DNA of 59,325 nt, the filler included. It is 7 parts of 7 records of this genome, joined end to end, with 100 filler letters (N's around TTAATTAATTAA, not from the genome) between each part and the next. Parts side by side here need not be neighbours in the genome. Positions count along the whole stretch, not along the records: positions 53,596 to 59,325 come from SRR31156797_50401; 6 more parts are not named here. The stretch is one strand, 5' to 3'. Positions 2,992-59,325 of the stretch are shown here, piece after piece; within the stretch, counting starts at the first letter, position 1, and every line of letters begins with the position of its first letter. The position numbers and the translations under genes are program-made. Under the pieces are notes generated by a model that ran no database searches, was not told the DNA's origin, and saw only the letters and a list, made by a program, of their open reading frames with translations.

Positions 2992-3020
2992 TTGACAGGA
3001 GCGTATTTGTTGGGGATACT
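2992..3020 (+). promoter_or_regulatory. Sigma70-type promoter
   Basis: TTGACA-17 nt-GATACT, 46 nt upstream of the 3067 start. Confidence 0.6.
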
Positions 3021-3066: not shown

Positions 3067-4725
3067 ATGCGCGGGTTTGGGAGAAAACTAGTGCCGGTGG
3101 TCATCGGTATGCTTTTGTTGTCGCCGCTGCCGTCATCTGCTGAGACGGTGAGAAGCGGATTGAAAAAGACCCTTGAGGGAGCGGGCGTTGACCATGCGGA
3201 CGCCGTGATTCAAGGGCTCGAGGGACCGCTGGGAAGCGGTTTGGACGGCCCCCTTCACGATTCGGTGGATTTTACCGCCTTTCCCACTGCCCGGCTGGGC
3301 CTGAAAAAACTATCGGCACCGGCCGTCCTGGTTCTGCCGCCTTCCACGGTGAATTACGTGTTCCAGGGGAAGCCGGACTCGTTCCAGGGTTCCTTCCGCA
3401 CCTATGAATTTCACCTGGGCCAGGGGATACAAAAAGCCTCCCACATGGTTTTTCCCCAGGTCTTTCAGCGAATCCGGGCCGCCAACGCCATGGCCCAGGC
3501 AGCCGGCGGGGAAATCGCCGTGGTGCCGGAGCTTTCCGAATTCAAATTCCGGTGGGGCGGGTCCTTTATCCCCGCCATGTACGTGACCCTGAAGATGAAG
3601 GTGACGCTCTTTGCGGACGGCAATCAGATCTTCCAGAAAACATATGTGGAAAAAGATGTGAAGGAAGGGGCCGGCAGCCTCTTTCCCAATGAGGACCAGG
3701 AGCACAAGGCCATATCCCGGGCGCTCATCGGCGCCCTGAAGCAGAGTGCCGCGGATATCGCGGCCTCCCCTGTCCTTTTGGCGTATGGGAAACGCAAACC
3801 GCCGGAACCACCCGCGCCGGGACATGAAAAGATCGATATGGACGCCATTCTTTTCCTGGCCGGCACATGGGAGCAATATGATAAGAACAAGGGACGGCTG
3901 ACCCTGCTTGAAAAACAGGTGGCGACCCGTTTTCTCCGGTTGCAGGATGCCTGGGAGAATAAGGATACGGAACGGCAGCAGGAGCAGGTGGCCGCTTTGA
4001 TCCGCCATGCGAAGAAGCTGGAGCCGGTGTCCAGGGGGGAGCTTTTGGAGGAGCTGCGGTACCAGAAAGGCTACACGGACCGGCAGATTGCCGAGGAAAA
4101 CGCCGCGGAAAACCGGATCTTCAATTTTGCAGGGAATCACACCGATACCGTGCTGGACTATGCCGGACTGGGCATCGACCTGGCCAAGGTCAGCGTTTTG
4201 GCCGCAGGGTGCATCGCCTCCTCGGGCGCCACCTGCCTTGCCCTCTCCACCACCATGGCCCAATGGGACATGGCGGGCACCATCAGTGAAGGGATCGGGG
4301 CGGCCTCCGAGGAGTATTTTCATAAAAGCGGGGATGTGGGTACCGCTTTGTTCGCGGGGGTAAAGAGCTCCCTCATCGATTATGGCGCCGGGAAGATCGG
4401 CGGGGATCTCGCCGAAGCCACGGCGGGCAAGTTTGGTACCAAGGTGGCCAAAAACATGGCGGAATCCGCGGCCTCGGCAAGCGATACCCTGGCCAAAAAG
4501 GCGGGCAGGGTCCGGGACGATGTCTTTGTCAATGCCATGGAGATTTTTCAGCGTGGGCCGGAAAACGCGGCGGCGGCGGTTTTCAAGGACAGCGCCAAGC
4601 GGCTGGAGGCGAAGACCGAGGATATAATCTTGAAGGAAATGGTCGAAATGAAGGCTCTGAAAAACACGGCCCCGACGTTTGAAGCGATGCCGGGCGATGC
4701 CTTTGATTCGCTCAGTGAACTGTAA
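3067..4725 (+). CDS. Hypothetical exported protein (552 aa)
   Basis: Long ORF with signal peptide (...LLLSPLPSSA); Ala/Gly-rich hydrophobic C-terminal half; no family recognised. Confidence 0.7.
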   Translation: MRGFGRKLVPVVIGMLLLSPLPSSAETVRSGLKKTLEGAGVDHADAVIQGLEGPLGSGLDGPLHDSVDFTAFPTARLGLKKLSAPAVLVLPPSTVNYVFQGKPDSFQGSFRTYEFHLGQGIQKASHMVFPQVFQRIRAANAMAQAAGGEIAVVPELSEFKFRWGGSFIPAMYVTLKMKVTLFADGNQIFQKTYVEKDVKEGAGSLFPNEDQEHKAISRALIGALKQSAADIAASPVLLAYGKRKPPEPPAPGHEKIDMDAILFLAGTWEQYDKNKGRLTLLEKQVATRFLRLQDAWENKDTERQQEQVAALIRHAKKLEPVSRGELLEELRYQKGYTDRQIAEENAAENRIFNFAGNHTDTVLDYAGLGIDLAKVSVLAAGCIASSGATCLALSTTMAQWDMAGTISEGIGAASEEYFHKSGDVGTALFAGVKSSLIDYGAGKIGGDLAEATAGKFGTKVAKNMAESAASASDTLAKKAGRVRDDVFVNAMEIFQRGPENAAAAVFKDSAKRLEAKTEDIILKEMVEMKALKNTAPTFEAMPGDAFDSLSEL

Positions 4726-14742: not shown

Positions 14743-14842
14743 NNNNNNNNNNNNNNNNNNNNNNNNNNNNNNNNNNNNNNNNNNNNTTAATTAATTAANN
14801 NNNNNNNNNNNNNNNNNNNNNNNNNNNNNNNNNNNNNNNNNN
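14743..14842. other. Artificial contig spacer
   Basis: 44 N + TTAATTAATTAA (stops in all six frames) + 44 N. Confidence 0.99.
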
Positions 14843-22485: not shown

Positions 22486-22585
22486 NNNNNNNNNNNNNNN
22501 NNNNNNNNNNNNNNNNNNNNNNNNNNNNNTTAATTAATTAANNNNNNNNNNNNNNNNNNNNNNNNNNNNNNNNNNNNNNNNNNNN
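22486..22585. other. Artificial contig spacer
   Basis: Same 100-nt N/TTAATTAATTAA linker. Confidence 0.99.
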
Positions 22586-29289: not shown

Positions 29290-29389
29290 NNNNNNNNNNN
29301 NNNNNNNNNNNNNNNNNNNNNNNNNNNNNNNNNTTAATTAATTAANNNNNNNNNNNNNNNNNNNNNNNNNNNNNNNNNNNNNNNNNNNN
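29290..29389. other. Artificial contig spacer
   Basis: Same 100-nt linker. Confidence 0.99.
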
Positions 29390-37696: not shown

Positions 37697-37796
37697 NNNN
37701 NNNNNNNNNNNNNNNNNNNNNNNNNNNNNNNNNNNNNNNNTTAATTAATTAANNNNNNNNNNNNNNNNNNNNNNNNNNNNNNNNNNNNNNNNNNNN
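37697..37796. other. Artificial contig spacer
   Basis: Same 100-nt linker. Confidence 0.99.
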
Positions 37797-47116: not shown

Positions 47117-47216
47117 NNNNNNNNNNNNNNNNNNNNNNNNNNNNNNNNNNNNNNNNNNNNTTAATTAATTAANNNNNNNNNNNNNNNNNNNNNNNNNNNN
47201 NNNNNNNNNNNNNNNN
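47117..47216. other. Artificial contig spacer
   Basis: Same 100-nt linker. Confidence 0.99.
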
Positions 47217-47217
47217 T

Positions 47218-50200
47218 GGTGACGGGATCATTGATACTGGTGAAGAATGTGATGACGGTATTTTAAATAGTGATACGAATCCTGGAGCATGTAGAACAAA
47301 CTGTATTGCATCAAAATGTGGTGACGGTGTAGCAGATCCGGGAGAACAGTGTGACGATATGAACACTGTGGATTATGATTCATGTACAAACCTATGTCTT
47401 AATTCCAGATGTGGTGACAACATAAGAAAGACCATTGATTCAACAACTGGTGAATACTCATGGTCTCCAAATGAGACATGTGATGATGGTAATACCAATA
47501 ATAATGATTACTGTCGCTCAGATTGTATGCAGGTTACAGGTTATTGTGGTGATGGAACTATTCAGACTGGACACCCTGCTAGTGAGGCTTGTGATAATGC
47601 TTCAACAGGCGATGGTATTGGTGCCTATTGTACTGGTCCATGTACAGGCTCAGGTGCATCAAAAACTTGTTCTGTCGGATGTACATTGAATCACGGTGCA
47701 TGTGGTGATGGAGATATTGATTACATTGCAAGTGAAATATGTGATGATGGAAATGCAATAAATGGAGATTATTGTTCTTATCCGAACTGTCAGATCACCG
47801 GTTACTGTGGTGATGGAACAGTTCAGATCAATGAGGCCTGTGATAGTGCCGACTCAACTGTTGGTGCGGGACAGGGAATTGGTGGATACTGTACAAACAG
47901 CTGTCAAACGAATCTGGGTTCATGCGGCGACGGAAAGATCCAGGGTCTTGGATATACAACTGCTATGTATGGCGGAACACTTCCTACGGGAACGGGATGG
48001 TCACTTGACGGTCCTGAATACTGTGATACTTCAGATCCTAGGGTCTTAAGTCTGGGTACTGCTTTTAATATTGGTTGTGACGGATGTCAAAGAGAAGGAT
48101 CTTGTGGTGACGGTATCAGACAGTTGCGTTTTGAGAGTTGTGATACAGGAACGCTACCTTCTCCAATTTTTAATTTAGAAATGGATGAAACATCCGGAAC
48201 AGTAGCATCAGATTCTTCTTCTAATGGATACGATGCCACTGTCTATAATGGCGCAGTATGGACTCCCGGAGTTAACGGGAATGCCTTGAAATTTGATGGA
48301 TCAAACGATTATGCCATAATAAATGACAATATCGTTGGCACCCCATCAGTTTTAACAGTTGCTGCATGGGTGAGAAATGACGGTAATGGATCGACTTATG
48401 AGTGTGCTGTTCACAAAGGAAACGGTGCAAGCATAGGAGCTAGTGAATACTGGTTAGGTTTTGAAACGGGGACTGATAACCTCGTTGCCACAATTGGTGC
48501 GGGTACAGGTGTCGGCTGGGCAGCTGGAAGAACATCGATTCCTGCAGTTGTAGGAGTCTGGTACCATCTTGCAGCAAGTTGGGATGGATCTAACGTAAAA
48601 GTCTATGTTAATGGTAACTTGGAAAAAGAGTACGCGCTTAGTAGTTACAACAATTTAACGACACCGACAAGGATCGGTGCTTCTTCAGATGGTGCAAACT
48701 ATCAGTATAATGGTGCAGTTGATGATGTAAGGATCTACGATAAAGCTTTTTCAGCAGTAGATATTCTTTCTCTGATGAGTAACGAATCTCCACTGTTGCA
48801 TTTGAAGATGGATGAAGCTTCTGGAACTATAGCATCGGATTCATCTGGAAAAGGATATAACGCAACGGTAAGTGGTGCAGTCTGGGTTCCTGGACAGTTT
48901 GACAATGCCTTGAAATTTGATGGCACCAACGACTATGCTATAGTAAATGATGTCGTTGTTGTCAATCCATCAGCTTTAACTATTGCAGCATGGGTCAGGA
49001 AAGATGGAAACGGTGCAAATTACGAGTGTGCTATTCATAAAGGGGCAGACACTTCCATTGGCGGTAGCGAATATTTTATTGGTTTTCAAGATGGAACAGA
49101 TAATATTATTGCAACAATTGGAGCAAGGACTGCTGCTATTTCATGGACTGCGGGTTTGACATCAGTTAAAGCTAATTGGGGAGTCTGGTATCATGTAGCG
49201 ATCACATGGGATGGATCAAACGCAAAAGTTTATGTGAATGGTAGTGTGGTAAAGACTTATGCTCTAAGTACATATTCGAATTTAACAACTCCGACTAGGA
49301 TCGGTTCGTCAGGAAATGGTACAGGATACCTATTTAATGGTGCGGTTGATGATGTCAGGATATATGACAGAGCTTTTTCAGATGCAGGAATAACCTCTTT
49401 AATGAGTAATGGAACAGATAGCTGTTATCCTGGATGTATGAGTGATCCTAAGGGTGCTCTTAACGGTGCCGGCAGAACTTCGATCAACGGTTGGGCTTGT
49501 GACCCGGACCATTCAATGACTCAGAATGAAGTTAAACTGATATTTACCGATGTAGATGGTGATCTGATCTCAACACAGACATTTAATACCTCAGTAGCTA
49601 GTGAGTCTCAGATAATAGATATTTGTGGTGGTGGAGCTAATCACAGATGGGATTTTGATCCAAATGCAGGTACGATCAACTGGGTTGGATTTCAGCAGCC
49701 TTTTACAGTTAGAGCCTATGCTTTAACTCCTGATGGCGTTCCTGAAACAGATGTGTTTATCGGGGCGAGAACTTTTACAATGGCAGATATCTGCGGTGAT
49801 GGAGTTCATGAAGGTGATGAAGAATGTGATGATGGAAATAGTGTAAACACTGATAATTGTAGAAATGACTGTGATCTTCCAAGTTGTGGTGATGGCGTTG
49901 TTTCAAGTACTGCAACGGGAATATACAATGAAACATGTGAGCTTGGACAGACTACAAGCTGTAATGCTGTAGGCGCTACTGGAGGTAGTGGAGCTCCTGC
50001 TTGTCAGACAGATTGTAAAGGCTGGGTCACAGCACCAAATGTCTGTACAAAGACATGGGGATGTGCTGCAAGGCCACAGGTTCACTCTTCAACCGAAACC
50101 GGTTGGAACAGTGTTGCCAGTTACAATCAGGTTTGGGATGGAACAAAGTGGGTCCCATCTGATTCTCCTACGGTTTTTAGTAATTTCTCAAGTACGACAG

Positions 50201-53200
50201 AGTGTCGATTCAGATGTGGTACGAATTTTGGATATGACAGTGCGACTCCTGACTGGAAAAACCCAGCTGCATGGAGTACTTCTTCAAAAGTTTCTTGGGA
50301 TTCAGGTCAGAATGCTCTGAAGTTTACAGGATATGCATGGAATTATCTTAACACTTATATTCCGATAGACACATCAAAAGAGTATTATCTTGAATACGAT
50401 ATAATGGTTCTAAATGGAGACGGATCAAGAACCTACGGTGGAACAAGATCTTTCAACTCTTCTTATACCTCTCTTCCGGGACATCCCGGATCATATGATT
50501 ACTTTACAGATTCCGCTTCAACAGCTGGTGGAACTTTCACCCCTGGAGTATGGTATACAAGGAAGAATTCAGTAATTAGTGGAGCTCCTAGAACTGGAGA
50601 GTCTTCAACAACTAGTGATAGAGCAAAGTGGCATACAGGAACCAAATATGCGAAAGTTCTCATAATTCATGGGTACAGTACGGGAACAACACAGGTAACT
50701 TATATAAGGAACCTTAAGTTTTATCCTGTTGGTGCCAGTGGAAACTGTGTAGGTACTTCAAGAAGGTTCACTTGTAATGCTAAGCCTGCTACTGGTACAG
50801 CTTGGACTTCTCCTTCCTACTATGATCAGACATGGACATGGAATGGATCTGCTTACAACTGGTTGCCGACAGCTGATTCGGATACAAATTACAACACAAC
50901 TTATGCTGCTAACCAGTGTCAGTTCGAGTGTCTTTCAACATACCATTGGAATGGATCCTCTTGTGTTTCTAATTCTGCTACATGGACTTGTCCTGGAAAA
51001 CCTGCAAACTCTGTTTGGAATTCCGTGTCAAGTTATGGACAGAGTTGGAATGGCTCAGCCTTTATTCCTGCAAGTGACTCAACTACAGAATATAATGTGA
51101 TCCCAAGTACTTCGTCATGTCGCTACAAATGTGCTCCTGGATATTTTCATTCAGGTGGAGTATGTTATCCGACATCATGTGGAGACTCTATAACTACGGA
51201 TACGGGAGTTGCATTTACAGATGAAAAAGTATATTTGACAATGGATGAAGGAGTGGGATCTATAGCCTATGATTCTTCAGGAAACAGTAATAACGGAACG
51301 ATTTCCGGTGCAACTTGGACAAGTGGACAATTTGGTAGTGGCTTGAATTTTGATGGTTCAAATGATGAGATAAATATTTCATACACACTTCCAACCAACA
51401 ACTTTACAATGATGGCATGGGTTAATCCGGATACTACACACCAGATAGATTCGCAATCTAATTCTTCTACAACTGGAACCGGTGGACAGAAATATCTTTT
51501 CTATCCTGATAACCAAAGCACTAATGGTGGTGCAGGTGTATCTGTAGGTACAAATGGTGTTTCGGTTTATGAACATGGAAGTGGCTATATGCCTCCTCTT
51601 GCTGTTTATGACAACCCTGTAGTCGGATGGAATCATGTTGCTGTAACATATACGAACAAGCAACCTCGGATCTATGTAAACGGAGTGCTTAAGGCGACAG
51701 GATTTACCTCTCCAAAGGGTACTGTTTATGCTCCGGATAATGTTGGTGGTGGAGGTTACGGGCATTTTGACGGACAGGTTGATCATGTGAGAATAATTGC
51801 TAAGTCTCTTTCTCAAGCTGAAGTTGTTCAGGCAATGGGTGAGTTTTGTGACCAGGGCGCAAGTAATAGTGATAGCTGGCATGCTTCTCCAGTGTGTAAC
51901 ACTTCTTGTACTGGCTGGAGTCCTTACTGTGGAGATGATACTACAACTTCACCGGAAACATGTGACTGGGGAGATGGTGCTGTTTCTACTACTTCATGGA
52001 CACTAAATGCTTCATGTGATACGGCATGCACAAGCAATAGGTACTGTGGTGATGGTACAGATGATGCAGAGGAGGCTTGTGATAAGAGTCGGTCGTATAC
52101 TCCTGATGCCCTTTGTGATAAGCGTTACGGTTCAAGAAATTACTATGACTGGTCAACTAGTTCTTGTGGATCCACCTGTGCGATTGGAGGTACCTGTTAC
52201 TACTGTGGTGATGGTGCAGGAACATCAACCTCTAATTTAAAGATGCACCTTGGGTTTGAATATGAACTTAAAGATAACTCCTTGAGTGGAAACCATGCTT
52301 CAGGTACTGCTTATTACATAGCAGGTGCGACAGGCACTGTAAATACCGGAAGAGCTCTGAATGTTACTTCAAGTAATGTTACTGTTCCTCATTCCTCAAG
52401 TCTAAATCTGCCAAGAAATATGAGTATAGAGTTCTGGATCAACACCAGCCAGTGGGTTAGCTCTACTGTTACCCCTATACCTATTCTGGTTAAAGGAACA
52501 GCAACTACATTGAACTATGCTTTTTGGCTTGAACCTCTTAGAGGAACTCTTCCTAATGGACATATTTCATTTGTAACGTATCCAACTACTGCCGGATGTG
52601 GTGTTCATACCAGAGCAAGGATCTCCGGTGGTGGATGGAAGCATATTGTAGGAACTTACGATGGCAGTACAATGAGAATATATGTTGATGGTGTGGAAGA
52701 ACCGGGAAGCGCTGAAAGCTGTTATAAGGCTTCAACTACATATTCTTCAAATCCGCTCTATATTGGTCGCTGGTCAGGATATTCTAACTTTTCAGGGTAC
52801 CTTGATGATATAAAACTGTATAACAAAACTCTAAGTGCGACTGAAATTAGGCGTAATTTTAAGGAACGATGTGATGATGGAAACAACACCAATGGTGATG
52901 GCTGTTCATCAACATGTACCGTTGAGAGATACAATAGATGTTCAGGAACGTCTACTTCAAGTTGTTCAGTTCCAACCTGTTCTCACAGGATCGTTCTTTA
53001 CGATAGTTACGGTGATGGATGGCATGGAAACAACAGCGTACGAGTCTATGTTAACAATGTCTTGCAAGGCACATATGCTTTGACTACTGGCGGTTATGGC
53101 CCGCAAACGTATTATTTTAATGCATATCAAGGGGCCCCTATCAGGGTGGAATATACAGCAGGGTCATATCCCGGAGAATGTTATTACTACCTTTATAACG

Positions 53201-53277
53201 GTTCAGGAGGAACAATGGCAAGTAGCTACTATCCAAATACAAGTGGAACTTATAACGGTACGGGATCCTGCCCATAA
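47218..53277 (+). CDS. Giant Cys-rich surface protein with Myxococcus Cys-rich (DUF4215-like) repeats and four LamG domains, 5'-truncated
   Basis: Frame open from the contig edge (GDGIIDTGEECDDG); many CGDG..ECDDGN repeats; LamG motifs ALKFDG, WYHLA..WDG...YVNG, GAVDDVRIY; ends TAA TGA. Confidence 0.9.
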   Translation, partial: GDGIIDTGEECDDGILNSDTNPGACRTNCIASKCGDGVADPGEQCDDMNTVDYDSCTNLCLNSRCGDNIRKTIDSTTGEYSWSPNETCDDGNTNNNDYCRSDCMQVTGYCGDGTIQTGHPASEACDNASTGDGIGAYCTGPCTGSGASKTCSVGCTLNHGACGDGDIDYIASEICDDGNAINGDYCSYPNCQITGYCGDGTVQINEACDSADSTVGAGQGIGGYCTNSCQTNLGSCGDGKIQGLGYTTAMYGGTLPTGTGWSLDGPEYCDTSDPRVLSLGTAFNIGCDGCQREGSCGDGIRQLRFESCDTGTLPSPIFNLEMDETSGTVASDSSSNGYDATVYNGAVWTPGVNGNALKFDGSNDYAIINDNIVGTPSVLTVAAWVRNDGNGSTYECAVHKGNGASIGASEYWLGFETGTDNLVATIGAGTGVGWAAGRTSIPAVVGVWYHLAASWDGSNVKVYVNGNLEKEYALSSYNNLTTPTRIGASSDGANYQYNGAVDDVRIYDKAFSAVDILSLMSNESPLLHLKMDEASGTIASDSSGKGYNATVSGAVWVPGQFDNALKFDGTNDYAIVNDVVVVNPSALTIAAWVRKDGNGANYECAIHKGADTSIGGSEYFIGFQDGTDNIIATIGARTAAISWTAGLTSVKANWGVWYHVAITWDGSNAKVYVNGSVVKTYALSTYSNLTTPTRIGSSGNGTGYLFNGAVDDVRIYDRAFSDAGITSLMSNGTDSCYPGCMSDPKGALNGAGRTSINGWACDPDHSMTQNEVKLIFTDVDGDLISTQTFNTSVASESQIIDICGGGANHRWDFDPNAGTINWVGFQQPFTVRAYALTPDGVPETDVFIGARTFTMADICGDGVHEGDEECDDGNSVNTDNCRNDCDLPSCGDGVVSSTATGIYNETCELGQTTSCNAVGATGGSGAPACQTDCKGWVTAPNVCTKTWGCAARPQVHSSTETGWNSVASYNQVWDGTKWVPSDSPTVFSNFSSTTECRFRCGTNFGYDSATPDWKNPAAWSTSSKVSWDSGQNALKFTGYAWNYLNTYIPIDTSKEYYLEYDIMVLNGDGSRTYGGTRSFNSSYTSLPGHPGSYDYFTDSASTAGGTFTPGVWYTRKNSVISGAPRTGESSTTSDRAKWHTGTKYAKVLIIHGYSTGTTQVTYIRNLKFYPVGASGNCVGTSRRFTCNAKPATGTAWTSPSYYDQTWTWNGSAYNWLPTADSDTNYNTTYAANQCQFECLSTYHWNGSSCVSNSATWTCPGKPANSVWNSVSSYGQSWNGSAFIPASDSTTEYNVIPSTSSCRYKCAPGYFHSGGVCYPTSCGDSITTDTGVAFTDEKVYLTMDEGVGSIAYDSSGNSNNGTISGATWTSGQFGSGLNFDGSNDEINISYTLPTNNFTMMAWVNPDTTHQIDSQSNSSTTGTGGQKYLFYPDNQSTNGGAGVSVGTNGVSVYEHGSGYMPPLAVYDNPVVGWNHVAVTYTNKQPRIYVNGVLKATGFTSPKGTVYAPDNVGGGGYGHFDGQVDHVRIIAKSLSQAEVVQAMGEFCDQGASNSDSWHASPVCNTSCTGWSPYCGDDTTTSPETCDWGDGAVSTTSWTLNASCDTACTSNRYCGDGTDDAEEACDKSRSYTPDALCDKRYGSRNYYDWSTSSCGSTCAIGGTCYYCGDGAGTSTSNLKMHLGFEYELKDNSLSGNHASGTAYYIAGATGTVNTGRALNVTSSNVTVPHSSSLNLPRNMSIEFWINTSQWVSSTVTPIPILVKGTATTLNYAFWLEPLRGTLPNGHISFVTYPTTAGCGVHTRARISGGGWKHIVGTYDGSTMRIYVDGVEEPGSAESCYKASTTYSSNPLYIGRWSGYSNFSGYLDDIKLYNKTLSATEIRRNFKERCDDGNNTNGDGCSSTCTVERYNRCSGTSTSSCSVPTCSHRIVLYDSYGDGWHGNNSVRVYVNNVLQGTYALTTGGYGPQTYYFNAYQGAPIRVEYTAGSYPGECYYYLYNGSGGTMASSYYPNTSGTYNGTGSCP
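48160..49410 (+). repeat. Tandem intragenic duplication of a LamG domain (627-nt period)
   Basis: ATGGATGAA at 48181 and 48808, with many shared runs (e.g. AATGCCTTGAAATTTGATGG). Confidence 0.85.
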
Positions 53278-53339
53278 TGAATGTTTTAGGTATTAATGAT
53301 ATTTTGTTTTACTATTAATTTTTTTGTAGGAGTGTGGAA

Positions 53340-53495
53340 ATGAAAAAACTTTTTATTATTGCTTTGGCAATGATGATGTTCGTTCTTGTCGGATGTGACA
53401 AGACAACCCCGGAAAAAGATGATGATGTTTTAGACAACGACAAAGATGTCATTGTTGATGACACAGAAAATCCGGATGAAGCAAAAGATGACACA
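53340..53495 (+). CDS. Lipoprotein with acidic linker, N-terminal fragment
   Basis: SD AGGAG, MKKLFII...LVGC, Asp-rich tail. Confidence 0.75.
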
Positions 53496-53595
53496 NNNNN
53501 NNNNNNNNNNNNNNNNNNNNNNNNNNNNNNNNNNNNNNNTTAATTAATTAANNNNNNNNNNNNNNNNNNNNNNNNNNNNNNNNNNNNNNNNNNNN
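53496..53595. other. Artificial contig spacer
   Basis: Same 100-nt linker. Confidence 0.99.
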
Positions 53596-53820
53596 AAAAC
53601 CACTTAAAAAATGACCCTTAAAAAACCCTGATTTATCAAGGATTTTATGATTGTTGACAAAAATACAAGATTACTGTTATATCAACGTTTTAAAGCACTA
53701 TTTTTGAAAAAACACCTCTCAGATGCAATGAAATTTTTTTTGTGGGGAATTACTCACTAGATTTAATCTGAGAGGTGTTTTTTTGTATGTAAATATATTT
53801 GAAACTTAAAAAAACGTTGA
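53596..53820 (+). repeat. Left terminal inverted repeat
   Basis: Gap-free reverse-complement match to 59101-59325. First 30 bp identical; 173/225 identical by manual count. Confidence 0.95.
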
Positions 53821-53881
53821 TGTACCAAAGTTTTTTAAGATTTTAATCTTGCTAAGGAAGTAATAGAAATATGGGTGTTAT

Positions 53882-53895
53882 AAAAGTCGACTTTT
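53882..53895. promoter_or_regulatory. Palindromic operator candidate
   Basis: Perfect 14-bp palindrome AAAAGTCGACTTTT upstream of the HTH-rep promoter. Confidence 0.4.
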
Positions 53896-53945
53896 TGATT
53901 AAAATACACCTATTATTTTTTGTTGTCTGATTATGTTAGATTTAC

Positions 53946-53975
53946 TTTACTTCAGTTGGTAAATTATGATATAGT
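53946..53975 (+). promoter_or_regulatory. SigA promoter (extended -10) for the HTH-rep operon
   Basis: TTTACT-18-TATAGT with TG at -15/-14. Confidence 0.55.
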
Positions 53976-54026
53976 CCGGCAATGATAATTAAAAAAATAA
54001 TATTTATTATAGGAGGTTATAACAAC

Positions 54027-54254
54027 ATGGTTACGATTGAAGAAAAGCAGATGTTTATTAAAGAAAAGTTGAGTATTTTAAAGGAACAATATGGGGTAAA
54101 AATGAATTTCATAGCTGAAAATGTAGGATTGCATACGCAAAATTTGCATAATTTTCTAAAAGGGAAAATAGGGATAAGTGAGAACAAGACAGATTTACTT
54201 GTGGAATTGTTAGTATCAAAATACGGAAAACTGTTAGATTTGGAGGATAAATAG
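54027..54254 (+). CDS. XRE/Cro-like HTH DNA-binding protein (75 aa)
   Basis: SD AGGAGG; YGVKMNFIAENVGLHTQNLHNFLKGK HTH pattern. Confidence 0.8.
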   Translation: MVTIEEKQMFIKEKLSILKEQYGVKMNFIAENVGLHTQNLHNFLKGKIGISENKTDLLVELLVSKYGKLLDLEDK

Positions 54255-54255
54255 T

Positions 54256-56187
54256 ATGAAGATTGAATTATGTATAGAAAATTTTTTAAGGAAGAGTAAA
54301 CCTAATCCAGATGAAATTAGAATGATTCAAAATGTGTTATATAAAAAAATACAAAAGAAAGAAATTGAAGATGTTGCTAAAAGTATTGCTGTTAATGGAA
54401 AAACAAGTATGTTAGCAACGTATTTTGAAACAGAAGAATTTTCTGAACGCATTCATTCGATTAATTTTAAACAGCAACAACTGATTATGCTTGATTTTGA
54501 TAATTCTAAAGTGGATATAGAAAAATACGGTATAACCACTTATGACTATGTAAGAAATCATGAATTTATTAAACAAAATGCTTGTTTCATGTATCGAACC
54601 TTCTCTGATAAAGAAGCAATAGTTGATAAATTTAGAGTCGTTTTTGTGTTGAATGAATCAGTAAAAGATTATTTACTGATAGGGAATATCTATACTAAAT
54701 TATTTCGTTTATTCCCATCTGCTGATAGAAAATGTTCCAATCCTAACCGGTTATTTTTTGGAAGTAATCGAGGGTATGAAGAAGTTCATTTTTCCAATCT
54801 TTTAAATGTTAAAGAATTTACAAGCGATATTGTGCCGATGAAAAAACAGTCAAACAAAATAGTAAAATCAGAAATTTATAACGAACAATATGAAATTCAA
54901 GATAGAAAGCTGGTTTGGCAACTAATTAAAGAAAATACGCAAGAATCAATTGATGAGGCAAGAGCGATTATCCTAGATAAATTCGATTCAGAAATTTCTA
55001 AGGTTTATCCTTCGTATACAAATGCAAGAGTCATTTTAAGACAAACGATTGATATGAGAGAGTTTTTAGAACTACCTAAATCAGAACCGTTTCATGATAT
55101 TTTAGAAAAAGATGAAAGTCCAAGTGCAAGCGTGATTCAATGGGAAGATGGCACACAAATTTACCATCGGTTTAATAAGGATTCTTTTGCCAATTTAGAT
55201 ATTTTGCGAGTAATTTCTAAACTGTTAAATCTAACAGGGTATGAAGGAAGTTGTAAATCCATCAATTTGCTATTATATTTAACTGGAAGTAGTTTGGATA
55301 GAACTTCTGAATCAGCAGAACAAATCGATAAAATTCAATTTTTTAGAAAAGTATTGAAGAGTGAAAAATTAGCTATTGAATACCCTAAATTCAGAAAATT
55401 TCTAGGAAGTGATTTGAATATATCTATCGCATTATTAGATATGCTTTCTGAGTATATGTATGAAGATTTTAAATCAGGGGAGGTTCGACACTTACTATGT
55501 CTAACGAGTGAAAACATTGCAAAAGAAATAAATATTGTTTTGGGAACAAGCTATGATAGTAAAAGAATTCAAAGGGTAATTAACAAACTTGCGATTACAG
55601 AAAATATTGAAAAGCTAGAAGAATCACAAATACCTACTGAATTATTTGAAAAATACACAGAAAATTCTTATGAAAAAATAACTAACAATAGATACCATCA
55701 TACAAATTTTATAGAGTTTAAAAATGCTGACATAGAAAAATCGGAGAATATATCTAAAGAATTGTATGCTAACAATTATACATTGAGTGTTTTGAATTTT
55801 GAAGGAATTGCTAGAATTCTAGGAAAAGATATTGCTAGTAATGTATTTAAGCAAAGAGAAACAACTGTAGCATCTAAAAAAATTAAAGTAGATGAAAATC
55901 TATTATCAAAATCAAAAAAGGAAAATGAGTTGAAAATAGCCAAATTCATTTTAAGAAAAATAGAAGCCCAATGCTATGTTGCTGAAAGAGATATAATCTT
56001 TTATGTTTATAAATATCTATTAAAGAATAAAACAAAGAAAGATGCCGAATATTTGGTAAAACAATGTCGAGCAAATATCTGTAAAGACTATGATTTAGAG
56101 CTTATCAGAGTAACTAATAGTATTAGAGACTATTATAAAATATCTAATGAAATAACGAGTAGAAGAATCATATATGTAAAGAATTAG
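54256..56187 (+). CDS. AEP-superfamily primase-polymerase-type replication protein
   Basis: SD GGAGG; AEP motifs MLDFD, YRTFS...KFRVVF, ADRKCSNPNRLFFG; then a CHC2-like and a winged-helix-like segment. Confidence 0.75.
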   Translation: MKIELCIENFLRKSKPNPDEIRMIQNVLYKKIQKKEIEDVAKSIAVNGKTSMLATYFETEEFSERIHSINFKQQQLIMLDFDNSKVDIEKYGITTYDYVRNHEFIKQNACFMYRTFSDKEAIVDKFRVVFVLNESVKDYLLIGNIYTKLFRLFPSADRKCSNPNRLFFGSNRGYEEVHFSNLLNVKEFTSDIVPMKKQSNKIVKSEIYNEQYEIQDRKLVWQLIKENTQESIDEARAIILDKFDSEISKVYPSYTNARVILRQTIDMREFLELPKSEPFHDILEKDESPSASVIQWEDGTQIYHRFNKDSFANLDILRVISKLLNLTGYEGSCKSINLLLYLTGSSLDRTSESAEQIDKIQFFRKVLKSEKLAIEYPKFRKFLGSDLNISIALLDMLSEYMYEDFKSGEVRHLLCLTSENIAKEINIVLGTSYDSKRIQRVINKLAITENIEKLEESQIPTELFEKYTENSYEKITNNRYHHTNFIEFKNADIEKSENISKELYANNYTLSVLNFEGIARILGKDIASNVFKQRETTVASKKIKVDENLLSKSKKENELKIAKFILRKIEAQCYVAERDIIFYVYKYLLKNKTKKDAEYLVKQCRANICKDYDLELIRVTNSIRDYYKISNEITSRRIIYVKN

Positions 56188-56210
56188 TATTATTGAACAG
56201 ATTATATAAG

Positions 56211-56414
56211 TTATACACCATTAATATTGAAGTGTAACTTTCATTCAATTTCCTCAATAAAATCAAGGGTAATTAGCATCTTTTATAATCATACCTTAAA
56301 TAACTTATTATTTATATATTCTTATTTAAGGTATGATTATAAAATCTGTAAAAACACCCCATAAAAAGAGACTTTTTTGGATGAAGTTTCCAATTCAATA
56401 TTAATGGTATATAA
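56211..56414. repeat. 204-bp nested palindrome (putative replication origin)
   Basis: Outer arms 56211-56248/56377-56414 (32/38) and perfect 23-bp inner arms 56281-56303/56322-56344 share the same centre. Confidence 0.9.
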
Positions 56415-56451
56415 TATGTAGTTTTATAATCATACATACTGATTAAGTACC

Positions 56452-56552
56452 AGCAAAGCTCCGCTTTGCTTACTTTTAATAGGAATATTGAAATTTAAAA
56501 AGAGGATGTTTTCTTCTCTTGTTTTTAGGTAGTAGCAAGTCAAAGACTTGCT
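56452..56552. repeat. Pair of AGCAA..TTGCT triloop hairpins
   Basis: AGCAAAGC-TCC-GCTTTGCT (56452-56470) and AGCAAGTC-AAA-GACTTGCT (56534-56552). Confidence 0.8.
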
Positions 56553-56719
56553 TATTAAATAGGGATTCTAACTTTAGTCAAATAGCTAAAATTTGCTGCC
56601 TAGAAGGTTATATGAAATCTTCCTAGAGTGAGAAATAAAAGAATTATTCAAAATAACTTTCAGAAAATTAGAGCTGATAATAATATAAATATGATATTAG
56701 GAGAGAATAGGTATTAATG

Positions 56720-56749
56720 AAACAGGTAGGAATTAGTACCTGTTTTTTT
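56720..56749 (+). terminator. Intrinsic terminator
   Basis: AAACAGGTA-8 nt-TACCTGTTT followed by a T tract. Confidence 0.65.
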
Positions 56750-57488
56750 ATATTTTAAATAGTAATTTTCAGATAATTACTTATTGTCAATAGATTATTT
56801 ACATGAAAACTAATAAGATACATAAAGAAAGTCCCCATAAAATCTAACTTTTATTGACCAAAACGTTTTATAATAATATATATATATTCTATTGTTATAA
56901 AACGCTACACTTAATTTTGCCCCTTTTTTCCTGATAAATTTGGATGTTTTCTCTAAAAATCGTTTAAAAAATTTTATTATACTTATTCTTCAAAACGATG
57001 AGGTTAAAAAAAGTCAATAAAATCTAGGGTAATCTACCTGTTTTCACATATATCTTTACGCAAAAATAACTTTACACTTGGTAGTAGTGTGATTGAAATA
57101 GCTATAAAACGTTGATATACCAGTGTTCGTATTTTTGAGTTCCAGCAATATTTCTCTTTATATTTATTAGTATAACAAGTTAGCTATTTTTAATCATGAA
57201 TTCTAGTCTGAATATATTTTGAGGGAGCATCCTTAAACATCATCAAACCAATAATATATCATTAAAGATATATTTTATTGTGTATTAAATGTCCATGTGT
57301 ATAAATAACGAAAAAAGCGTTTTGAACAGTCTAACTTTACCCATGAGTGGCTTGAAAATGATTTTCGATGAATTATACTTAAAAATTTATAATCGCTTAG
57401 AACGCAATTTAAGCAGCATAGGATTTATTTTGAATTTTTAGCACAGAAATTACCATTGATTTTAGTAGTCAATAAGATTTGAGAAGTA

Positions 57489-57797
57489 TTAATCTGTGAT
57501 TTGACTATCAGAGTTCATTTTTTCAATTTCAACCATTTGTTGTTCATAAAATGGCGAGGTAGCTATTTTAATCTTTTTCTCTGTTGAAATCGTTAAAGAT
57601 GAAATATAGTGAGGAGTTACTGCCACTTCAGCAGATGTTTCTGATAACGTAATTAATAATGATTGATTGTCGCCAAAAGTAGCATATTCCGAAACAATAG
57701 CAACTAAGCCATCTTTATTTGTTAGTATCGACAAATACTTAGGTGCTTCGATAGTCCATCCAAATTGCATCTGGTGAGTGTTCATTTTGAGTCCCAA
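57489..57797 (-). CDS. Hypothetical protein (~100 aa)
   Basis: A 102-codon ORF in very AT-rich DNA is unlikely by chance; start is TTG 57797 or ATG 57785. Confidence 0.6.
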   Translation of the reverse strand: MGLKMNTHQMQFGWTIEAPKYLSILTNKDGLVAIVSEYATFGDNQSLLITLSETSAEVAVTPHYISSLTISTEKKIKIATSPFYEQQMVEIEKMNSDSQITD

Positions 57798-57910
57798 CTT
57801 TCTATTTTTTATCGTTACTACAATACTAACATGAAAAAATCAAATATTATCAAATTACCTGTAAATATAACCAATTAATTGCTCTCTAAATACTTTAAAG
57901 TAATAACGAC

Positions 57911-57935
57911 TTTAAATTCTAAATTAGAATTTAAA
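57911..57935. promoter_or_regulatory. Operator-like palindrome between divergent genes
   Basis: TTTAAATTCTAA-A-TTAGAATTTAAA, perfect 12-bp arms. Confidence 0.45.
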
Positions 57936-58075
57936 ACGTTAACAGCATCCTGAAATTTTTATGTATTAGTGCTTAATAAATAACGTTATATACAATTTAA
58001 AAATAATTTAGATGTTAAGTGCTATCCTTAAAAATGAAATTTGTAATGGCTAAAATTTTAAAAAGGAGTCGGAAA

Positions 58076-59004
58076 ATGGATAAACAAAATTTAGATTGCC
58101 TCAAAGATTTGAAGAAAAAACTATTAGGTAGCAATTATATTACTGGAAAGAATAATTCTATCAAAAATATACTAATGGCAAAGGAAGGAAAATATTATCA
58201 GGATAAAGAAGGAAAAGTAATAAAAGGTCATATAGAAAAATATGGAGTAGTTGATAAGGCATTCGAAAAATTAACTGACGGAAAACCTATCGAACATACT
58301 GATGTATTGCACTCTTTCTGGCATACATATAAAGCATTGATGCAATTAGAAAGACCAGATTTATTTAGACCTTCAGGTTCTTTAAAAGAAGGCAATGTTA
58401 TATCTTTAGAAAAACCAGATACAATGAATCCACCTGAAATTGATAATCGTTTCCCACCACATGCTTCCGATAGTTATTCAGTTATTCACAAAAAATATAT
58501 TAAATACTATCAGCATTATTTTCCAGAGTATTTACCCAATGAGGTTCCTAAAAAATACACATGGATAGATTTTCTACTATACAACAATGATAAATTTAGT
58601 GAAGTATATGACAAGTATCCTAAACTAAAAGATTTTGCAAAATTAACTCATAGCATTGGAAATATTATTGTTGTGCCTAAAGGATTTAATACTGGTCGAG
58701 GAGCGAATGACTATGGAGATTTTGCATTAAAAAGTTTAAAGACATTTTTGGATTCATTTAACACTTGGGAAGATTATGTAACCCAGTTTCATTTAGAGTC
58801 GTTCTTAAATTCAGATGAAAATCAGAGTGAAAAATACTCTCCGATTTCATTATGGAATGGTCATTTAGAGGGAAAGGCAGGCTCTTTTCCAAAAATAAAA
58901 CTGAAATAAAAGAATTTCTAGAAATTGTAACAAGTTCTATTGAAGAAAGAGAAAAAATTCTATTAAAAAAAGTAAAAGATAAATCTTCAGAAATAGAAAA
59001 ATAG
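58076..59004 (+). CDS. Putative His-Me-finger-like nuclease (DUF6994/DUF1524-like); frame 0 stops at 58909, -1 frame continues to 59004
   Basis: SD AGGAG; HSIGNIIVVPKGFNTGRG..D motif; -1 frame encodes NKTEIKEFLEIVTSSIEEREKILLKKVKDKSSEIEK. Confidence 0.55.
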
Positions 59005-59100
59005 TCCATGCTAGATTTTTAAGTATGAATATTTTTAGATTTTTATAGAAAGTTATATCCAGCTAATATTTTCTTAAATATTTAATTAAATATTAATATA

Positions 59101-59325
59101 TCAACGATTTATTGACTTTACAGTTTAAATCCATAATAAAAAACACCTATCAGACAAAAATAAGCGTAGAATTACCCATAAAAAAAGTTTCGTTGCATCT
59201 GAGAGGTGTTTTTTTTAAAACACATTGAAAAATCGTTGATGTTACAGTAAGTTTGTATTTCTGTCAACAAGTATAAAACCCTTGATTTTACTGGCTTTTT
59301 TAAGGGTCATTTTTTAAGTGGTTTT
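59101..59325 (-). repeat. Right terminal inverted repeat
   Basis: Reverse complement of 53596-53820; ends exactly at the last base of the contig. Confidence 0.95.

Follow-up and report, generated by a model that had tools for sequence, protein, structure and literature searches.

Plasmid pAMbeta1 uses a processed rep transcript as its primer and replicates by a Pol I-dependent, unidirectional theta mode. In pRN1 of Sulfolobus, a small repressor and an AEP rep share one operon, and a stem–loop of ~100 nt downstream of rep is described as required for replication; this stem–loop is movable, needs an intact stem, is conserved in structure and variable in sequence, and lies between conserved flanking blocks, and BIP-1-like phages are mentioned in the same account as having a similar arrangement (PMC4234260). 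In the SaPI origins as presented in one source, 6–12 iterons of 5–6 nt, pointing in opposite directions, lie on the two sides of an AT-rich centre just behind rep, and the Rep that reads them with its C-terminal winged helix is itself a self-loading helicase (PMC9371898). In RSF1010, according to the descriptions at hand, the primase RepB′ primes on the hairpins ssiA and ssiB, which as inverted repeats present the same structure on both strands, and the plasmid needs a separate iteron binder, RepC, and a separate helicase, RepA (PMC8567376; PMC4234260).

The locus that we compare with these systems lies on an Enterococcus contig of 5730 bp and ~28% GC. It forms part of a 59,325-nt window, by which we mean the whole stretch of DNA that was analysed, in which seven unrelated records ranging from 61% down to 24% GC are joined by N44-TTAATTAATTAA-N44; features must not be read across these joints (Table 1). 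An earlier note on this DNA had pointed to a 204-bp concentric palindrome just downstream of rep and proposed for it a Rep-loading origin or cruciform, with a structured RNA or a resolution site as alternatives. We conclude that the palindrome is probably the core of a Rep-specific replication origin serving the Rep encoded just upstream, in a design nearest to the origins of pRN1 and the SaPIs. The replication-module family of Enterococcus that it represents is previously undescribed; the origin design is already familiar.

Architecture of the locus

Table 1. Coordinates of the features discussed, in window positions unless another locus is named
Feature	Position	Strand	Remarks
Joints between records	14743–14842, 22486–22585, 29290–29389, 37697–37796, 47117–47216, 53496–53595
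Promoter-plus-hairpin module, inverted copies at both record ends	53596–53835 and 59090–59325	+ (53596–53835)	~190–240 bp
Small HTH protein	53982–54254	+	90 aa; weak HTH_60 match, E 5e-4
Rep	54256–56187	+	643 aa; AEP primase fold and winged-helix domains (predicted structure)
Left outer arm	56211–56248		32/38 complementary to 56377–56414
Left spacer	56249–56280	+	Carries motif CAATAAAATCAAGGGTAAT
Left inner arm	56281–56303		Outer 14 nt (56281–56294) are iteron copy 1
AT-rich centre	56304–56321	+	18 nt; candidate unwinding or priming site
Right inner arm	56322–56344		Iteron copy 2 at 56331–56344 on − strand
Right spacer	56345–56376	+	Carries CACCCCATAAAAAG motif
Right outer arm	56377–56414		Holds promoter-like site 56387–56415 (TTTCCA, 17 nt, TATAAT; 10/12)
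Iteron copy 3	56422–56435	+	Exact 14-mer copy
8-3-8 hairpin	56452–56470	+	AGCAAAGC/GCTTTGCT; called terminator-like
Second 8-3-8 hairpin	56534–56552	+	AGCAAGTC-AAA-GACTTGCT; inside distal block 56509–56605
Orphan second origin-like module	56650–57123	+	Lineage G; palindrome 56864–56878 / 56890–56904
Cargo ORF, 102 aa	57489–57797	−	No family
Cargo ORF, 296 aa	58019–58909	+	No family
Cargo in other loci	L043 8444–8926; L026 1543–2550, 9602–10171; L051 11163–13700; L047 11315–12496

All coordinates given in the earlier note were borne out. The left outer arm begins 23 nt behind the rep stop (56187), and a recount finds the outer arms complementary at 32 of 38 positions (84%) and the inner arms at 23 of 23 (100%) around a single centre, 56312/56313. 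The spacers are as poorly complementary as had been described (9 of 32 positions between left and right, the chance level), 18 AT-rich nucleotides lie between the inner arms, and a third arm copy at 56422–56435 is complementary to 56331–56344. When the outer-arm geometry was imposed on 5507 other centres in the 5730-bp record, the mean was 11.3 matches (sd 2.8) and the maximum 22. The 14-mer that opens the inner arm, TTTTATAATCATAC, occurs three times exactly and once with two mismatches in the 59-kb window, against 0.36 copies expected, and four copies were reached in 0 of 100 shuffles. Two of these 14-bp sites face each other in inverted orientation across a very AT-rich core of 36 bp, the third copy lies 78 bp to the right, and the local GC minimum (12.5%, in the 40-nt windows 56280–56319 and 56300–56339) falls at the palindrome centre. 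Folded as single-stranded DNA, 56205–56440 reaches −41.4 kcal/mol, as compared with −15.3 ± 2.8 for 200 shuffles (z −9.3).

Several shorter elements surround this core. The motif AAAATCAAGGGT recurs at 59278 (−), at 57019 (+, one mismatch) and at 57452 (−, one mismatch), and other lineages have it next to their palindromes, on the + strand. In lineages B, F and G, a motif like CACCCCATAAAAAG lies to the other side of the palindrome, and the right spacer has a direct-repeat partner at 56828–56857, beside the second palindrome. The hairpin at 56452–56470, whose stem is invariant, loop variable and T-run weak among relatives, is possibly the rep terminator, or else a protein or primosome site; its stem and that of the hairpin at 56534–56552 resemble each other. 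The distal block 56509–56605 is conserved across Rep lineages, recurs after other reps and ends at a mosaic junction. No DnaA box was found in 56188–56610, and their count in the whole window is at chance. Two small ORFs within the palindrome (56227–56364, + strand; 56312–56437, − strand) were considered as genes and rejected on account of a 1-nt loop indel among relatives.

Might the palindrome instead act as RNA? As the 3′ UTR of the rep mRNA, it could provide a stabilizing or regulatory hairpin, or a processed primer transcript of the kind used by pAMbeta1. Between the rep stop and the palindrome there is no terminator-like site, the first being the hairpin at 56452–56470, and the RNA fold of 56205–56480 is far stronger than that of its shuffles (z −10.2); against an RNA element, the stems are AT-rich and lack a U-tract, and 53000–59325 has no Rfam match at E up to 1. 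We consider such a role unlikely, and return to it below with the comparative evidence. Among contigs of sequencing runs, none contained half of the sampled words. A 376-nt contig of depth 4.1 from an RNA-library run spans 56039–56414, from the 3′ end of rep through the palindrome; DNA may be present in that run and a contig does not reveal transcript ends, so transcription is not implied.

The two ends of the record are inverted repeats, perfect over the first 30 nt and ~85% identical over the following 190–230 nt, and each carries a module in which a promoter-like site is followed by an 18-bp-stem hairpin flanked by A and T runs. In the right-hand inverted copy, the promoter-like site is on the − strand (TTGACA, 17 nt, TAACAT; 10/12), and a matching site was read by eye in the left copy, which is likely the promoter region of the HTH–rep operon. 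A linear plasmid with terminal inverted repeats was considered and rejected: in module copies at other loci the similarity runs ~20 nt past the first base of the record, so that the record end is an assembly break at the exact 30-nt inverted repeat. Across related Enterococcus loci the module is present many times and in both orientations (8, 1 and 3 copies in three Enterococcus genomes, always near these loci) and seems to bound cassettes of variable cargo; it might act as a promoter with a small RNA, as an insulator or as a recombination site. The neighbouring, unrelated record consists mostly (47359–53277) of one 1972-aa cysteine-rich repeat protein.

Rep and its relatives

The record encodes only four ORFs, namely HTH, Rep, the 102-aa ORF and the 296-aa ORF. 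The 90-aa HTH protein is a putative regulator of the operon, its ORF ending 1 nt before rep starts, and a small ORF stands ahead of rep in every lineage. Rep itself belongs to no Pfam or NCBIfam family, its relatives are annotated only as hypothetical, and its sole family match is phrog_25531, of unknown function; none of 16 family members matched PriCT or another Pfam family at E up to 1. An AlphaFold model built from a 16-sequence alignment has a mean pLDDT of 69.7 and is confident at residues 1–190 and 555–643. In this model, residues 2–191 match the AEP domain of the PrimPol of cyanophage S-2L (6zp9_A; Z 9.6, 141 aligned, rmsd 3.7) and the RSF1010 primase RepB′ (3h25_A; Z 7.6, 145 aligned), with other Prim-Pol enzymes also matching, and residues 546–643 match winged-helix domains (Z 7–8.5), Z values below 8 being only moderate. 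A Foldseek search of the PDB returned nothing at E 0.001 or better, its best match being an AEP domain at E 5e-3, and the Rep profile had 0 matches at E up to 1 among the sequences of solved structures. Three aspartates, D80, D82 and D157, are invariant. The Walker A pattern [AG]xxxxGK[ST] is present in 0 of 16 and 0 of 24 homologues and Pfam finds no helicase family in Rep, where residues 191–350 are modelled with low confidence and a divergent fold is possible; nor does the 5730-bp record encode a helicase or loader. No HUH nicking Rep family was matched, whereas a nicking Rep of this type would be expected beside an ssoA-type rolling-circle single-strand origin; the predicted fold is that of an AEP instead.

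A protein search yielded 173 proteins at E up to 1e-5. Close relatives, at 86–94% identity, come from Enterococcus, many of them on contigs of megabase size; intermediate relatives (P0005, P0007–P0012) share 43–61% identity, and at ~28% stand homologues on Bacillus licheniformis pTAB7B (L076) and S. aureus pWBG758 (L077). PLSDB holds seven records with a Rep match, none of them from Enterococcus, and a scan of viral_contigs with Rep gave 14 pattern matches and no relatives. Both pTAB7B and pWBG758 are circular and filed as plasmids, but each is a complete siphovirus-like genome that carries ParA or AAA-ATPase genes, and is hence a phage-plasmid. Neither has an annotated replication gene, and in each the Rep homologue, labelled hypothetical, lies a few genes from the ParA/AAA-ATPase genes and is a candidate initiator. 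“Rep” is a reasonable name for the 643-aa ORF, for which we infer this function. Literature searched under AEP/Enterococcus origins, EFAR repeats and EfCIV583 contained nothing on this Rep family.

Conservation among close relatives

Eight loci of the same type as the record, here called A-type, match record positions 1 to ~3010 at 81–96% identity. The similarity stops 410–426 nt past the rep stop, at record positions 3002–3018 (window 56597–56613), and the record and these loci make up a 9-sequence alignment. In 134 Enterococcaceae genomes, the A-type block was found at full length only in three that were already known, the remaining matches being short pieces.

Within this alignment, the 14-mer of both inner arms is invariant in all nine sequences. 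The last 13 positions of the third copy are identical in eight of the nine; it is variable at its first position, and a further change is seen in L010. In the inner 9 bp of the stem the two arms vary together, taking the forms CCTTAAATAA/TTATTTAAGG, CAATAAATAA/TTATTTGTTG and CCTCAAAGAA/TT(A or C)TTTGAGG. Over the 23 inner pairs, 98.1% of cells are paired and four pairs are changed on both sides (8 cells), which, as the nine sequences are related, may amount to as few as ~3 independent events. The covariation score of the inner stem is 0.130 as against 0.053 for shuffled alignments, was reached by 0 of 500 shuffles, and falls to 0.043 or less when the register is slid. Read from the alignment, these changes point to selection on the inner palindrome as a palindrome.

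The outer arms present another picture, with 78.9% of cells paired, no compensatory pairs and scores equal to those of shuffles in the same nine sequences. Their mispairs are balanced (21 G.T cells vs 19 A.C cells) and favour neither strand. The right outer arm and the proximal half of the left are conserved in sequence, while the distal left arm diverges uncompensated. On this evidence the outer arms are conserved sequence blocks in inverted orientation, set off by asymmetric spacers. The whole 204-bp palindrome does not behave as one folding structure, the outer arms having neither covariation nor a wobble bias towards one strand. The same balance of mispairs speaks against an RNA element, whereas one inner pair that is T.G on the rep-sense strand in three of the nine sequences speaks for it.

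The alignment also bears on the idea that the locus is regulatory, with the HTH protein or some other regulator binding the 14-mers as operators, and with divergent promoters in the outer arms controlling the downstream cargo or an antisense RNA. HTH dimers typically bind palindromic sites, and the promoter-like site in the right outer arm (10/12) is followed by the third copy and a hairpin. Its −10 hexamer, however, is not conserved in four of the nine relatives; promoter-like sites occur in the record at chance frequency (33 found vs 36.6 expected), the half-sites are 36 bp apart, and there is no copy of the 14-mer near the operon promoter. We therefore hold an operator or promoter to be very unlikely, a judgement to which the distribution of HTH variants described below contributes. 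A short RNA started from the promoter-like site of the right arm was a further candidate, and is weakened by the same non-conserved hexamer.

Palindromes of other Rep lineages

For the distant relatives, we compared 33 loci with a full rep followed by 300 nt of N-free sequence. Left out were L008, L013, L024, L036 and L055, in which the contig ends sooner, L054, which is masked, L020, whose rep frame is interrupted from the start coordinate used, L001, with 205 nt to the record end, and partial rep matches. In 28 of the 33 loci, the best inverted repeat exceeds the maximum of 20 mononucleotide shuffles, the other five being L012, L032, L052, L053 and L002. The earlier note had suggested looking for conservation and covariation downstream of Rep homologues, and in that comparison palindromes follow rep in 28 of 33 loci, and the inner stem covaries in the A-type. 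Eight further Rep lineages, ~30% identical to the A-type Rep, each have their own AT-centred palindrome after rep. Across the nine lineages A–I the palindromes lie 70–245 nt past the rep stop and have AT-rich centres and differing stems, for example TCATTATACACATCTA (B), TCATTAGATACCTCTA (C), ATTCATTTTAGGGGTATA (E) and CGTTTTATAATAATA (G). In several lineages, a second tier of symmetry lies 55–100 nt from the centre. On the rep-sense strand, ATATTC stands immediately to the right of the centre in lineage A, and ATATTC or ATTC occupies this place in B, D, E, F and G. The phage-plasmid homologues of Bacillus and Staphylococcus have no strong palindrome after rep.

In every one of the eight other lineages, a third arm copy lies ~100 nt to the right of the palindrome as a direct repeat of the right arm, and thus cannot compete for pairing. 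Of the two roles that had been offered for the third copy, a competing arm or an iteron, the latter is therefore the better reading. Its arm orientation differs across lineages, which fits protein sites better than a fold and also counts against the RNA element.

Which part of the locus does the palindrome belong to? Its type tracks the clusters of Rep identity. The HTH gene tracks neither palindrome nor Rep type: at least three HTH variants, at 46–54% identity, occur within A-type loci, one variant is common to A, B, C, E, F and G at 82–92% identity, and another is common to D, F and G at 89–91%. This shuffling of HTH genes is reminiscent of swappable repressors. Recombination has thus parted HTH and rep, and likewise the cargo and the block behind rep, but in our sample never rep and its palindrome. 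Considering that the palindrome follows Rep rather than HTH and that homology ends at record positions 3002–3018, rep and the ~420 bp behind it are inherited as a unit within a mosaic. Since HTH variants shuffle independently of palindrome type, the tie of the palindrome to Rep argues against an HTH operator.

Where sister lineages differ in their stems, conservation of Rep is lowest at residues 588–600, in the C-terminal winged helix, and at 184–199; the values for 588–600 are 58% for B–C, 25% for D–E and 29% for F–G. The divergence at 588–600 fits a Rep-specific cis site that is read by the C-terminal winged helix.

A probable Rep-specific origin and its nearest counterparts

From these parts and their co-inheritance, which are observed in the sequences, we infer binding, opening and priming as follows. 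Rep would bind the 14-mers, that is, the inverted pair and the third copy, through its C-terminal winged helix. Binding, together with supercoiling, may then open or extrude the AT-rich dyad, and the AEP domain could lay a primer on the exposed strand, after which the helicase and polymerase of the host would take over. For the outer arms and the conserved distal hairpins we suggest a role as auxiliary double-stranded DNA sites for Rep or host factors. The Rep-linked origin of the earlier note is the best-supported reading, given the compensated inner palindrome and the tracking of Rep by the lineage palindromes; the 204-bp unit as a single fold is not supported.

Several points were counted against the origin reading. 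First, linkage alone makes neighbouring DNA diverge with its gene. Second, the independent compensatory events may be as few as three, and the outer arms are uncompensated. Third, 5 of the 33 loci, as well as the phage-plasmid homologues, lack a strong palindrome. Fourth, the Enterococcus homologues sit on chromosome-sized contigs and none of the seven PLSDB matches is from Enterococcus, which makes the Enterococcus elements at most putative autonomous replicons. Finally, the record has no helicase or loader, and the region no DnaA box.

Of the described systems, pRN1 resembles the locus in its operon of a small DNA-binding protein gene and an AEP-type rep, in a stem–loop downstream of rep whose structure is conserved, sequence varying and flanks conserved, and in the C-terminal winged helix of its Rep. 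It differs in that ORF904, with which the comparison was made by description rather than sequence, carries an SF3 helicase, whereas the Enterococcus Rep lacks a Walker A motif. The Enterococcus locus further differs in the invariant outer 14 bp of its stem and their third copy, in its second, concentric arm pair and in its bacterial host. With the SaPIs and other PICIs it shares a putative origin immediately after rep, repeats that face opposite ways across an AT-rich centre, a winged helix at the C-terminus of Rep, apparently specific Rep/origin pairs and a chromosomal context; unlike them, it has three copies of a 14-mer, a compensated stem and no recognizable helicase.

The likeness to RSF1010 (IncQ) would lie in the AEP-fold primase, as far as the predicted structure goes, and in a palindrome that could offer a hairpin on both strands. 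On the other side, none of the four ORFs of the record has a RepC- or RepA-like family match, and RepB′ has a helix-bundle domain where the Enterococcus Rep has winged helices. With pAMbeta1 and the Inc18 plasmids, which occur in the same host genus, the locus shares the order of HTH regulator, primase-related Rep, a region after rep that would hold the origin, and recombinase. It is nevertheless not a member of the pAMbeta1 family, to which the earlier note had likened it: hhalign of the Rep profile with RepE, a primase C-terminal domain protein, gives a probability of 0.3% (E 0.2, 18 columns), leaving only the gene order (HTH, Rep, downstream origin) alike. Moreover, no comparable palindrome was seen by eye in the 540 nt after repE, and the Enterococcus plasmids in PLSDB have no match to this Rep family.

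If the origin reading is true, the palindrome provides both the origin and the specificity of a replicon family that is widely distributed in Enterococcus and Vagococcus and whose Rep has so far had no Pfam or NCBIfam model. Likewise, a helicase-less AEP initiator would be added to the few primase-type initiators working at hairpin origins. With its nine natural Rep/palindrome pairs the family offers a ready-made specificity series, and the low mosaicism inside the rep–origin unit, as compared with the strong mosaicism up- and downstream, suggests a natural definition of the minimal replicon.

Mosaic context, second module and cargo

Behind the A-type block, the record carries a second, origin-like module that belongs to lineage G (Table 1). 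Its palindrome has 15-nt arms that are 93% complementary and a GC content of 10% at the centre, and the same palindrome lies 155–202 nt past the G-type rep in L026 and L034. Record positions 3093–3528 match L026 at 91% directly after its rep; overall, the module at 56650–57123 is ~90% identical to the G-type post-rep block and has its own third copy, with no G-type rep. The same tandem arrangement of two modules occurs in L044. The range 56190–57100, which the earlier note had treated as a single unit for cloning, therefore spans two separate origin-like modules, the second from lineage G. The orphan module has no rep of its own; a Rep from a co-resident element could replicate it in trans or be titrated by it.

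Recombinases near these modules suggest one more alternative, namely that the small serine recombinases use the palindrome for resolution or crossover; the mosaic junctions would then be accounted for as well. Near some loci there are small serine recombinases and a fragment of a tyrosine recombinase, resolvase-family genes (188–206 aa) lie <6 kb from rep in all four loci scanned (L051, L026, L047 and L005), and in pAMbeta1 a recombinase gene comes after the post-rep region. These facts have to be set against the tracking of Rep lineage by the palindrome, against the position of the mosaic junction, which is ~190 nt beyond the outer edge of the palindrome and not inside it, and against the search for an integrase or recombinase, which found none in the 5.7-kb record or among the 12 largest of 30 L043 ORFs. 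We consider a recombination site very unlikely.

A broader scheme, which we put forward as a speculation that is rather improbable as a whole, would place the Rep-specific origin within chromosomal, recombining Enterococcus replicon cassettes, each composed of a promoter module, a shuffled HTH, a helicase-less AEP initiator, a hairpin origin and anti-phage cargo. In such cassettes, the initiator might prime by itself on the extruded hairpin, in a manner like pRN1 and RSF1010 with a single polypeptide, and orphan origins might be served in trans or might titrate.

The cargo of related loci is mostly defence-like, comprising ToxN, Abi_2, a PemK-like toxin, a Type ISP restriction enzyme and a Ser/Thr kinase. 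LPXTG proteins also occur near rep modules. In the record itself, the only match for the two cargo ORFs is a weak one to DUF6994 (E 0.004). The region of the 102-aa ORF recurs at 82–94% identity in other loci and at 88% in the Enterococcus phage record OR846597.
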